A DNA stretch of 64,000 bases from positions 204,281 through 268,280 of the forward strand of contig CAZULC010000001.1 in NCBI GenBank assembly GCA_964621165.1, in the 5' to 3' direction. Positions within the stretch are counted from its first letter, which is position 1; each line of letters opens with the position of its first letter. Position numbers and translations under genes: made by a program. This document shows, in pieces, positions 23,887 to 25,942 of the stretch. The notes beneath the pieces were generated by a model. The model ran no database searches. It was not told the origin of the DNA and was given only the letters and a program-made list of their open reading frames with translations. Source of the stretch: an uncultured Ruminococcus sp. (GTDB lineage Bacteria > Bacillota > Clostridia > Oscillospirales > CAG-272).

Positions 23887-25575
23887 ATGGAACTTGGGAA
23901 TGATACAGATTTGTCTGAGATACAGGCAATGATTGTTGAATATATGAGAGCGAATTATCATTATACGCAGACGTCCTTTGAGCTGTGGTTTGGGTCGCTG
24001 AGACTCATTTATCTTGACGGGTCGAGGGCGGTTTTCTGCTGTGAAAATTCGACCAAGCAGAGGATCCTTTCGGACAAGCATCTGGGGCTTATCAAGGACG
24101 CCCTGGATGAGGTTCTGGGGTACGTGCCTGACGTGGAAATCCGCGTGGATGCGTCGGCTTCGGCGGCTTCTTTGGCTTCTGCGGACCGAACGGACAGGCG
24201 GACGGACTTGGCTTCATCAGCTTCTTTGGCTGAAGACGTTTATGAGGACGAGGGGGAAGAAGAGGATGAGGACGGATTTGACGCGGGGGGAGTTTATTTT
24301 GAGGACTACGACGATTTTTCGGACAGCGAGCCCGAGGGGGAGAGCGAGACTTACACTCCCATGCCCAAGGCTGACTCGAAGAACCGGAGCTGGTCCCGTC
24401 CTCAGAAGCTGAATTACGGTGGGGCCAACTCAAGCGGTGCTGGTTTAGCTGACTCGGGAAAGCGTTCGTCTTTGTCTGCGTCTACGGCTCAGGCGGGGCC
24501 GCAGGGGGGCGGATTTGGCACGGCTTCGGGAGGGGAAGCGCGGGAAGACAAGTGGCGGGAGTACATCAAGGACTACACGTTTGAGAATTTCATCGTAGGC
24601 AGTTCAAATCAGCTGGCGCACGCGTCGGCCATGAATGTAGCTGACAACGTGGGTTCGAAGGTGAATCCGTTATTCATATGGGGGCCGTCGGGTTTAGGGA
24701 AGACTCACTTGATGTATGCGATCGCCAACCGTGCTTTATCGCACAATCCTGACATGAAGATAATCTGCATAAAAGGCGAGGAGTTCACGAATCAGTTAGT
24801 TGAGGCGATACAGAAGAACCGGAACCGACAGTTCAGGCAAAAGTACCGTTCCTGCGACATGCTGATGATAGACGACATCCAGTTTATCGCGGGCAAGGAA
24901 GCGACGCAGACAGAGTTTTTCCACACGTTTGACGCTTTATACGAGGACAAGAAGCAGATTATACTGACGTCGGACCGGCCGCCCCGCGAGCTTGAATCGT
25001 TGGAACAGAGAATCCGCAGCCGGTTTGAGCAGGGGCTTTTAGCTGATATAAAGCCGCCGGACTACGAGCTTAGGATGGCGATATTACGGAACAAGATAAA
25101 TCAGAATCATGTGGACGTACCGAAGGACGTAGTGGATTTTCTTGCGCAGAACCTCCAGGAGAACATACGTCAGCTTGAGGGAGTGATCAAGAAGTTAGCG
25201 ATGTCGAACTTATTGACGGGGCAGCCGGTGAACATGGAGATGGTGATACAGACGGTGCCGGAGTACCTGCGTGACGCGGAGCCTGTATCGGATGTGATTC
25301 AGAGGATAATCGACTGTGTAGCCCGCAGATACGAAGTTTCAGTGAGCGACATCATGGGCATGTCCCGCAAAAAAGAAATCAAGACAGCCCGCAACGTAGC
25401 GATGTATGTAGTACGCAGTGTGACCGGTGCTTCCCTCCCCCAGATAGGTCAGGTATTCAAGCGCGACCACTCCACGGTTCACTCGAACATAAACATGATC
25501 GAAGGCGAAATCGCCTCTGACCCTGTACTGGATGCGCAGATCCACGAGATTATGAAAGAAGTCAAGCGTGGGTGA
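23887..25575 (+). CDS. dnaA: Chromosomal replication initiator DnaA with an expanded acidic/Ser-rich domain II
   Basis: AAA+ Walker A motif GPSGLGKTHL, box VII, and the C-terminal DNA-binding helix (DHSTVHSNI). Confidence 0.95.
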   Translation: MELGNDTDLSEIQAMIVEYMRANYHYTQTSFELWFGSLRLIYLDGSRAVFCCENSTKQRILSDKHLGLIKDALDEVLGYVPDVEIRVDASASAASLASADRTDRRTDLASSASLAEDVYEDEGEEEDEDGFDAGGVYFEDYDDFSDSEPEGESETYTPMPKADSKNRSWSRPQKLNYGGANSSGAGLADSGKRSSLSASTAQAGPQGGGFGTASGGEAREDKWREYIKDYTFENFIVGSSNQLAHASAMNVADNVGSKVNPLFIWGPSGLGKTHLMYAIANRALSHNPDMKIICIKGEEFTNQLVEAIQKNRNRQFRQKYRSCDMLMIDDIQFIAGKEATQTEFFHTFDALYEDKKQIILTSDRPPRELESLEQRIRSRFEQGLLADIKPPDYELRMAILRNKINQNHVDVPKDVVDFLAQNLQENIRQLEGVIKKLAMSNLLTGQPVNMEMVIQTVPEYLRDAEPVSDVIQRIIDCVARRYEVSVSDIMGMSRKKEIKTARNVAMYVVRSVTGASLPQIGQVFKRDHSTVHSNINMIEGEIASDPVLDAQIHEIMKEVKRG

Positions 25576-25942
25576 CGAAGGAGAGTGAAGGTAACTTCGA
25601 AGAAGTTAGGAAATACCGAAGGGATCTCCGGGGGATGCGCTTCTCTAAAGAAGCTGTGCAAGAACTTTTAAAAGAGGATGCAATGGGGTCAGCTGAGCAG
25701 GAAGAGATTGCGGCTGCGGTTCTGCAGCTGAGTAGTAAAAAGTCCGTGACTATAAAATTTTTAACACCAAGGAATCAGGAATAGTTGAGGCGGCAGTCAG
25801 GGACCGCCTGGTTGGAGATAGCTTGCTGTCTACGTTACACAGCTTCCGCCCCCTGCCTGCCCACGCCGGATCCCGATTGCTTGATAGGGCAGTTATAACG
25901 TTTGGTCCTACAGCAGTTTTATCAGCGCGAGCAGGGGTGCCT
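25576..25942 (+). repeat. Family A repeat, copy A7 (directly after the dnaA stop)
   Basis: The leader TGACGAAGGAGAGTGAAGGTAACTTCGAAGAAGTTAGG is followed by the end module at 25631-25675. The interior is colinear with 18083 and 31402. Confidence 0.85.

Follow-up and report, generated by a model that had tools for sequence, protein, structure and literature searches.

Directly behind the dnaA stop codon (TGA, 25573-25575) of the 64,000-nt stretch of DNA analysed here, hereafter the window, lies a repeat whose other copies also face gene ends, purine-rich after stops and pyrimidine-rich before starts. The original prediction read this as a strict orientation rule, and took it as an argument that insertion is targeted or that gene-end function is under selection. 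This raises the question of what kind of element the repeat is, and whether its orientation says anything about function.

A repeat family in the replication-origin region

At the dnaA site a purine-rich leader (GAAGGAGAGTGAAGG...) at 25577-25635 is followed by a conserved module, TGCGCTTCTCTAAAGAAGCTGTGCAAGAAC, at 25636-25665. A scan of the window with the module consensus CGCGCTTCTTGAAAGAAGCTGTGCAAGAAC gave 18 matches at up to three mismatches, where chance predicts none, and all 18 copies listed in the original prediction were present as described. Beyond these we identified a nineteenth module at 49053 and a degenerate twentieth at 9381-9443 on the minus strand, together with five minis. 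The total is 20 modules in 17 repeat blocks of 180-430 nt (<600 nt), plus the 5 minis, all intergenic, and the family covers about a tenth of the region. The copies are as follows.

5229-5660, plus: element A, complete imperfect palindrome of ~400 nt, modules 5301-5330 (plus) and 5602-5631 (minus); fills the GT28-rsmG spacer, with a long leader directly after the GT28 stop TGA (5226-5228)
9381-9443, minus: degenerate solo module; short leader complement, ending 3 nt upstream of the parB ATG (9446)
12079-12401, plus: element B, single-ended, module 12116-12145; after the MORN gene stop (12063), convergent spacer
14765-14875, unoriented: mini C, made up of leader, single hairpin and complementary leader; flanked by the start of HK (14735) and the stop of the response regulator, whose TGA (14873-14875) lies inside the leader word GAGTGAAG
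16177-16603, plus: element D, complete palindrome, modules 16222-16251 (plus) and 16528-16557 (minus); flanked by DUF4342 (start 16081) and mnmE (stop 16597); folds as a single giant hairpin
18102-18446, plus: element E, single-ended, module 18142-18171 toward the mnmE start (18000)
23690-23795, unoriented: mini F, a pair of leaders linked by ACGCGCTTC; lies upstream of the dnaA promoter; left leader 92% identical to that of element D
25577-25954, plus: element G, the copy at the dnaA site, single-ended, beginning 1 nt downstream of the dnaA stop; the leader (25577-25635) and the hairpin module (25636-25665) are followed by an arm, a conserved core and a tail
28276-28471, plus: element H1, truncated, single-ended, module 28339-28368; after the dnaN stop (28251)
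28876-29105, minus: element H2, short form, module 29043-29072 toward the gyrB start (29155); 96% identical to element P over 203 nt
31419-31872, plus: element I, single-ended, module 31444-31473; after the gyrB stop (31401), with a second tail copy at 31781-31872
32803-33190, plus: element J, complete palindrome, modules 32825-32854 (plus) and 33118-33147 (minus); fills the pfkB-gyrA spacer
36806-36940, unoriented: mini K, between the terminators of tRNA-Ser and infB
44901-45255, plus: element L, single-ended, module 44938-44967 toward the lipoprotein gene start (44879); divergent spacer, with the CAAX gene promoter (45324-45352) outside the element
46674-46853, plus: element M, truncated, module 46692-46721; tadA stop TGA (46674-46676) inside the leader
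47590-47665, unoriented: mini remnant, after the orf185 stop (47577-47579)
49022-49344, plus: element N, single-ended, degenerate module 49053-49082; the AI-2E transporter ORF (stop 49064) overlaps at its 3' end with the leader and first module bases
51575-51650, unoriented: mini O, flanked by the stop of trkA (51558) and the start of the BNR gene (51698)
52790-53016, plus: element P, short form, module 52814-52843; BNR gene stop TGA (52790-52792) in the leader
60407-60683, plus: element Q1, module 60432-60461; leader holds the last codons of the acyl-CoA ligase gene and its TAA stop (60418-60420)
61479-61840, minus: element Q2, single-ended, module 61771-61800 toward the BMP gene start (61927)
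63285-63622, plus: element R, single-ended, module 63338-63367; leader starts about 60 nt after the BMP stop (63222)

The outermost part of each element is the leader, which is purine-rich, partly tandem and built from GGGGAGAC/GGGGAAC-type units. Its purine content ranges from 51 to 84%, compared with 51% across the window, and it holds 0-7 Shine-Dalgarno (SD)-like words per 45 nt. The hairpin module GCTTCTT-GAAA-GAAGC comes next, and then GTGCAAGAAC. Three forms can be distinguished: full palindromes of ~400 nt (A, D and J), which carry leader and module at both ends; single-ended copies of about 330 nt, in which the inverted counterpart is only a degenerate match (CACAGCTTCCGACCCC); and central-deletion minis of 75-135 nt, also with inverted leader and module at both ends. 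The palindromes would have arisen by inverted duplication around a central hairpin, GGCGGTCCCTGACTGCC, and would have given rise to the minis by loss of their central part. One tail type contains, on the same strand, a related small hairpin, GCTTGATGAAGC. Copies within the window are only 75-90% alike and their leaders are variable; the 96%-identical pair 28879-29081 and 52805-53007 (H2 and P) represents recent spread.

Orientation and distance to gene ends

The leader side pointed toward the nearer gene in 19 of 19 modules (12 stops, 7 starts). The copies placed after stops by the original prediction (GT, MORN, mnmE, dnaA, dnaN, gyrB, pfkB, tadA, BNR/sialidase-like, acyl-CoA ligase and BMP; 11 of 11) and before starts (rsmG, gyrB, gyrA, BMP, mnmE, DUF4342 and the lipoprotein gene at 44879; 7 of 7) were correctly assigned, and Pfam confirmed every gene name. 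The AI-2E transporter gene (after stop) and parB (before start) add one case to each group. The pattern is thus present, but it does not go beyond geometry. Blocks take up most of their spacers, and the module is the terminal part of the block. Flipping and sliding the blocks at random, each inside its spacer, left on average 16.9 of 19 modules pointing toward the nearer gene, and all 19 did so with P = 0.08. Because the elements are intergenic only and nearly fill the spacers, every end faces a gene; the purine-rich strand after a stop and the pyrimidine-rich strand before a start then follow for a gene-facing end from strand geometry alone, and no such end could break this sense/antisense half of the rule. 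The orientation rule arises because an inverted-repeat element that is restricted to short spacers has the module as its outer end. It is geometry and not a functional constraint, and as a by-product of this kind it is unfit as evidence of function, so that the argument from a strict rule to targeted insertion or gene-end selection fails.

One feature does exceed chance, namely closeness to stop codons. Of the 13 leaders on the stop side, 11-12 start within 7 nt of a stop codon or contain it; gaps to starts measure 21-101 nt. Leaders enclose the stops of four genes (response regulator, tadA, BNR and ligase), and the AI-2E ORF extends into the module. A TNA triplet often precedes the leaders (TGA/CGAAGG, TGA/AGTGGG and TAA/AGTGGG, the slash marking the leader edge), without demonstrable matching pairs. 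Irrespective of gene direction, the orientable elements lie 14:3 on the plus strand (p = 0.013), a bias that the MITE-like model set out below leaves unexplained.

Relatives in metagenomes and the nature of the element

The exact 27-mer and 22-mer of the module had no match in the genome or metagenome contig collections, and no relatives of the pfkB protein were found in the genome contig collection. ORFs that cross the blocks are spurious and not conserved, with only two database matches, both from the window's own contig; the spurious module ORFs (RFLKEAVQELL), tried as a route to more copies, returned only the window's own ORFs and two weak matches. A variant module in a weak match (L003) prompted the degenerate pattern TTCTTGAAAGAAGCNNNGCAAGAAC, which we used to scan metagenome contigs and which matched at least 120 of them. 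In the flanks of these relatives similarity drops sharply at ...TNA/TACTAA.... Nineteen well-delimited relatives measure 178-232 nt and have terminal inverted repeats (TIRs), with an identical TNA on both sides in 16 of the 19. The TIRs are 20-22 nt long, begin with TACTA... and match at 14-18 of 22 positions in accepted copies. Many of the metagenome relatives are clear MITEs, with TIRs and a 3-bp TNA target duplication. Only one of their ends has the module, and both orientations were found. Homology between the window elements and these proven MITEs does not extend beyond the ~40-nt module and the GGGGAAC/ATAC unit next to it, the module being common to MITE subfamilies with differing termini and interiors in many gut and rumen Clostridia.

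Taken together, we consider the repeat to be a family of small non-autonomous mobile elements (MITE-like), with a probability of roughly three in four. The family is small and non-coding, has TIRs and is dispersed in many copies. Cut-and-paste transposition with a 3-bp TNA duplication is evident in the sequences of the module-carrying relatives and may apply equally to the window elements; in the window copies no target-site duplication or sharp terminus could be defined, and duplications sought by eye were unconvincing. A cognate autonomous IS with the same ends was not found. Pfam detected no transposase in the window, and none lay beside the modules in three fetched loci (L022, L099 and L089). 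Pairs of TIRs 0.6-4 kb apart were absent from the approximately 0.7 Mb searched, except for two adjacent MITEs in L071. The TIR TACTAATCTCA... was not matched to any IS, nor was there similarity to plasmid or phage IS ends.

Several known systems invite comparison. Like the bacterial MITEs Correia of Neisseria and RUP, BOX and SPRITE of Streptococcus pneumoniae (PMC10969869), the elements are small, lack an ORF and have inverted-repeat ends; they also share with these MITEs the many dispersed intergenic copies, the capacity to form hairpins if transcribed, the clustering or nesting and the frequent position near gene ends. We found no sequence similarity to described MITE families, from which the window family differs in its unusual length, its full palindromy and its G-rich tandem leader. 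It appears to be an undescribed family of a known kind of element. Correia elements duplicate TA, unlike the relatives described here, which duplicate a 3-bp TNA. Target duplications of 3 bp (TNA/TWA) are made by the IS1031 group of the IS5 family and by the related eukaryotic PIF/Harbinger transposons and Tourist-like MITEs. The metagenome relatives resemble this group in their T-N-A duplication and short TIRs; the 3-bp duplication is the one feature that carries the likeness, and no transposase was found. ERIC/IRU elements are likewise imperfect palindromes of >100 nt that sit between co-transcribed genes in either orientation, but their sequence and host are different, and we know of no G-rich tandem leader or demonstrated stop-codon association in ERIC.

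The relatives also bear on the stop codons: each of their two ends is found preferentially at gene 3' ends, and the TNA beside 18 of the copies serves as stop codon of the gene upstream. Targeted insertion at gene ends, which the original prediction had drawn from orientation, is plausible in view of these 18 copies and of the TNA duplication. TAA and TGA are themselves TNA triplets, and an insertion exactly at a stop would regenerate the stop. It would leave the protein and the promoter and ribosome-binding site of the downstream gene intact, and such copies would survive. Survival of this kind would explain why leaders lie at or inside stops while the start-side gaps are 21-101 nt. The TNA-at-stop-codon habit of the relatives would thus offer a simple mechanistic reason for bacterial MITEs hugging the 3' ends of genes. 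Module and leader are common to divergent MITE subfamilies and stand directly at stops in about three quarters of cases. It is for this reason that we also considered a transposon-borne 3'-end cassette tolerated or used by the host, for example as an mRNA 3' stabiliser or processing site, or a dedicated stop-codon-targeting transposon that uses TAA and TGA as safe havens, both of which we regard as unlikely.

A reading at the RNA level is unlikely. Here selection would maintain module and leader as an RNA element of gene 3' ends, be it a terminator, an mRNA stabiliser, an RNase processing site or a translational coupling device, in sense after stops and with its complementary arm before the next start. 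The leaders do begin at stop codons, both in the window and in G-leader relatives of other organisms, and they bear SD-like words. Using a home-made gene caller that scores amino-acid composition and GC3, validated by Pfam on only two metagenome loci, we found that the module end of relatives adjoins a stop 70 times and a start 22 times (76% of 92; p = 5e-7). The non-module end is, however, equally stop-adjacent (stop:start 12:3, against 44:17 for the module end; Fisher p = 0.75), and relatives with both flanks known fall into stop/stop 7, start/stop 3, stop/start 2 and start/start 1. Co-directional spacers of relatives contain both orientations (2 versus 3, no preference), and 8 of the 20 window modules are antisense, upstream of starts. 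Purine and pyrimidine leaders can pair, as had been proposed, because both are arms of the same palindrome. The palindromic copies would make very stable hairpins in read-through transcripts (element D has a predicted fold of -156 kcal/mol, z = -8), but single-ended copies are no more stable than shuffles (z = -1.2 and +1.1). An intrinsic terminator, in which a G+C-rich hairpin is followed directly by a T-run, was not found at the modules: GTGCAAGAAC follows the hairpin instead, and terminator-like matches lie off the modules. Neither terminator-like nor promoter-like sites are systematically associated with the elements, and downstream genes have their own SD sequences and promoters outside them. 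A promoter within the module (TTGAAA-N17-TTTAAA) was rejected, as the conserved A2 and T6 are missing from its second hexamer and scans gave no systematic matches. The 6-bp hairpin core is nearly invariant, with a C-G to T-A double change in two copies, but the covariation of CCAGCTTC/GAAGCTGG and CCCCGCTTC/GAAGCGGGG, suggestive by eye, did not exceed a shuffle control. Compensatory changes are absent from the conserved core, and a structured RNA in the conserved right part was discarded (no compensatory pairs, positive covariation term). Two element regions had no Rfam match at E up to 1, and a scan with Rfam 15 at gathering score returned only tRNA-Ser. Selection on termination, RNA stability or coupling thus gains no support from a terminator signature, an Rfam family or covariation.

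Transposition through single strands, in which hairpin-recognised or REP-like elements are mobilised by Y1/HUH enzymes (IS200/IS605-type PATEs, REPIN/RAYT) and the strand bias is tied to replication, seems very improbable. The conserved subterminal hairpin, the inverted doublets reminiscent of larger-scale REPINs, the strand bias itself and the same-strand hairpin GCTTGATGAAGC would all fit. Proteobacterial REP/BIME/REPIN sequences are similarly extragenic palindromes just downstream of genes, often in inverted pairs and in hundreds of copies; however, REPs are 20-40 nt long, make no target duplication and are tied to RAYT genes. PATEs derived from IS200/IS605 carry hairpins on the same strand at both ends and are oriented with replication, and they have neither TIRs nor a target duplication. 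The relatives have both TIRs and a target duplication, which are not products of HUH single-strand transposition. The window contains neither a RAYT nor a TnpA gene, and a Pfam scan of 40 window proteins detected no Y1/RAYT domain. Metagenome contigs with two copies contain 1 same-orientation pair against 5 opposite. DnaA boxes (cluster 25945-26580) place oriC in the dnaA-dnaN spacer, and element orientation does not flip there, which led us to reject replication-linked orientation.

Annotation and assembly

The MITE-like family supplies several genes with their stop codons and C-terminal residues, and thereby affects annotation; the underlying biology is of modest use. The gyrB, DUF4342, HK and PRT genes had been over-extended into repeats, and their corrected starts are 29155, 16081, 14735 and 60852, respectively. 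The elements also break short-read assemblies at nearly every gene boundary: Logan contigs from the same sample end at elements, and many of the metagenome matches lie at contig ends.

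Repeat elements in the window

Directly after the TGA stop codon of dnaA comes a purine-rich stretch, with the conserved sequence TGCGCTTCTCTAAAGAAGCTGTGCAAGAAC next (25573-25680). The consensus of this hairpin module, CGCGCTTCTTGAAAGAAGCTGTGCAAGAAC, has 18 matches in the window at up to 3 mismatches, against 0 expected by chance, and a profile search added several miniature copies. Self-comparison revealed that in every case the module is the outer part of a larger block of 180-430 nt between genes. Three forms were observed in the window: full palindromes, single-ended copies and minis.

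Further module copies, palindromes and minis in the window
49053: 19th module copy
9381-9443: degenerate 20th module copy, from the profile search
5229-5660: imperfect full palindrome, ~400 nt
16177-16603: imperfect full palindrome, ~400 nt (block D)
32803-33190: imperfect full palindrome, ~400 nt
14765-14875: mini
23690-23795: mini
36806-36940: mini
47590-47665: mini
51575-51650: mini

The forward and reverse-complement strands of the full palindromes can be aligned end to end, with an outward-facing module and purine-rich leader at both ends; the predicted fold of block D as a single strand is one hairpin with a free energy of -156 kcal/mol (z = -8). Most other blocks are single-ended, running from leader and module through a variable arm, a central hairpin (GGCAGTCAGGGACCGCC) and a well conserved core of ~90 nt to a tail of one of two types. 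The folding stability of these copies was not above that of shuffled sequence, and their conserved core contained no compensatory changes. The five minis comprise a purine leader, one hairpin and a complementary pyrimidine leader. The most alike pair of copies in the window shares 96% identity over 203 nt, the remainder being 75-90% similar to each other.

Orientation and position relative to genes

The original prediction held that the module end always faces the adjacent gene, purine-rich after stops and pyrimidine-rich before starts, and took this as a sign of targeted insertion or of selection on gene-end function. Every copy it listed has the position and orientation described, and its gene labels are all supported by Pfam. 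An element end adjoins, by definition, whatever flanks the element, and it faces a gene because the spacers barely exceed the element length. Where a gene ends at an element the sense strand reads leader then module and is purine-rich; where a gene starts there, it reads the reverse complement and is pyrimidine-rich. This sense/antisense part of the rule must hold for every gene-facing end. Either strand of a palindromic copy starts with a purine arm, making the rule strand-symmetric. The falsifiable part, that the leader lies toward the nearer gene, was tested by randomly flipping each block and sliding it within its own spacer. A mean of 16.9 of the 19 modules complied under this null, and all 19 did so in 8% of trials. 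The orientation pattern is real, yet with compliance this high under the null it provides no evidence of constraint; it follows from geometry once inverted-repeat elements are packed into short spacers. The suggested pairing of purine and pyrimidine leaders is correct for the palindromes, where both leaders are arms of one inverted repeat.

As to function at the RNA level, no T-run follows the module hairpin, window scans found no systematic link between the elements and promoter-like or terminator-like sites, and Rfam gave no match, even when E values as high as 1 were admitted for two element regions. Across copies the 6-bp core of the hairpin hardly varies, with a C-G to T-A double change in two of them. 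Extended complementary stems occur in some subfamilies. Covariation, counted formally, did not exceed the shuffle control, leaving selection on the hairpin unproven. The elements, especially the giant palindromes, may have an RNA-level role in read-through transcripts.

The real non-random feature is abutment to stop codons. Leaders start within a few bases of the stops of dnaA, GT28, dnaN, mnmE, pfkB, gyrB and MORN, and the stop lies inside the leader for the response regulator, tadA, BNR (sialidase-like) and acyl-CoA ligase genes, the response regulator TGA being that of the leader word GAGTGAAG. The AI-2E transporter ORF extends into the module. On the start side there are gaps of 21-101 nt, and the genes still have ribosome-binding sites and promoters of their own.

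For gyrB, the DUF4342 gene, a histidine kinase and a phosphoribosyltransferase, the longest ORF begins inside a repeat (29047-29154, 16082-16204, 14736-14876 and 60573-60851, respectively). Downstream of these, at 29155, 16081, 14735 and 60852, are better starts that have ribosome-binding sites. Genes in this genome are likely to be over-extended into repeats by automatic annotation.

Metagenome relatives and mobility

The exact module had no match in 185,579 reference genomes or in JGI metagenomes. A variant, GCTTGGCA, was found in an ENA contig through a weak protein-level match, and the degenerate pattern TTCTTGAAAGAAGCNNNGCAAGAAC matched at least 120 metagenome contigs, many of which end inside the repeat. 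The dominant variant among the matches listed contains ACGCGGCTTCTTGAAAGAAGCCTGGCAAGAAC. Upstream similarity between relatives breaks off sharply at the junction of T-N-A with TACTAA, and complete relatives measure 178-232 nt with terminal inverted repeats of 20-22 nt. Among the matches listed, 16 of 19 well-delimited relatives carry an identical TNA triplet (TGA, TTA or TAA) on both flanks, which we inspected by eye in contigs L071, L022 and L099. With their 3-bp target duplication, the complete relatives qualify as textbook MITEs.

Relatives carry the module beside only one of their two terminal repeats, an asymmetry that allows orientation to be scored. Genes were called from amino-acid composition and GC3, which recovered the genes that Pfam supports in L022 and L099. 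Among the matches listed, the module end lies beside a stop in 70 unique copies and beside a start in 22 (p = 5e-7), and the non-module end beside 12 stops and 3 starts (Fisher p = 0.75 versus the module end); where both flanks are known, 7 are stop/stop, 3 start/stop, 2 stop/start and 1 start/start. Both ends strongly prefer gene 3' ends, and since they do so equally the orientation rule is absent. Among the matches listed, 18 TAC-type copies (terminal repeat beginning TACTA) have an upstream gene that ends in the flanking TNA, which acts as its stop codon (TGA in 9, TAA in 9); these upstream ORFs have 124-793 codons. If an element inserted at a stop (TAA or TGA), the target duplication would restore that stop and the event would be harmless; target choice with purifying selection could then explain the association. 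The same signature, leaders at or in stop codons, is present in the window, where the TNA target of the relatives would most simply explain it.

One 178-nt MITE (L072, 374-552) sits exactly between two convergent genes, its left TAA being the stop of one and its right TCA (TGA on the other strand) that of the other.

The window elements belong to a known, MITE-like kind and form a new family within it. Sharp termini and matching target duplications were sought in the window copies and none could be defined, and no transposase was found in the window or in the metagenome loci searched, so we infer mobility only from architecture, copy-number pattern and module homology. Orientable window elements are biased 14:3 to the plus strand (p = 0.013) whatever the flanking gene direction or side of the origin, and the bias does not reverse at the DnaA-box cluster between dnaA and dnaN. 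No comparable bias was found in metagenome contigs with two copies, and the MITE-like reading does not account for it in the window.

The leaders of other metagenome subfamilies resemble those of the window in being G-rich and tandem, (GGGGAAC)n. L003 (254-310), L070, L031 and L098 have leaders that clearly consist of tandem G-rich units of 7-8 nt (GGGGAAC/GGGAGAAC), up to 6 in number. By sequence these leaders fit a G-quadruplex motif, and those of the window resemble degenerate forms of such arrays. L100 carries two inverted modules ~400 nt apart. L004 (JGI 3300082166), with G+C above that of the window, contains at 1055-1100 a module-like GCCGCTTTTTGAAAAAAGCGGTGCAAAAACTTTTG with compensated stem changes, comparable to the window copy at 5301; its homology is uncertain because the protein-level match is not significant (E = 0.36).

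The origin region and other repeats

The window comes from an uncultured Clostridia genome and covers its replication-origin region, with the Pfam-supported order rnpA-yidC-jag-mnmE (minus) then dnaA-dnaN-gyrB-pfkB-gyrA (plus). Named relatives of its GyrA are 'Clostridia bacterium' or Oscillospiraceae MAGs. Five DnaA-box-like sites on the minus strand, one an exact TTATCCACA, cluster at 25945-26580 in the 1.4-kb dnaA-dnaN spacer, the probable oriC. An overlap exists between the first of these sites and the right end of the element after dnaA (25577-25954, +), so that a putative mobile element directly abuts the probable origin.

Across the whole window GC skew is positive on both sides of dnaA, though the genes change strand at this point. 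Relative to mnmE-jag-yidC-rnpA, the rsmG-noc-parA-parB block (5683-10363) is in inverted orientation, and an element at 12079-12401 (+) lies near the right limit of the run of plus-strand genes (32-12063) to which this block belongs. Repeat-mediated inversion or mis-assembly could account for the pattern.

In the 618-nt spacer between dus and a flavin-reductase gene (2806-3423), a ~40-nt repeat (GGATTATCTTTTT..AAAATTTATTGCAGAATTGTTA) occurs six times at spacings of 59-124 nt, just right of the window's cumulative GC skew minimum (about 2 kb). This array, in which no DnaA-box consensus was found, could be iteron-like or regulatory. A second, unrelated family of ~150 nt (ATAAAGTTTAGATCAAACCTTTTCAAAGGCTTGTAGGGGTCAAGGGGAAAACG...GATAAAGGAGAAAAGAAC) has one copy in the jag-yidC spacer (20895-21060, +) and an inverted pair in the marR-ligase spacer (58240-58395, +; 58505-58660, -). 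Three tandem 105-nt repeats (40095-40410) fill the spacer immediately upstream of infB, and a long 12/24-nt array inside its N-terminal region (39425-39856) encodes a low-complexity protein segment.
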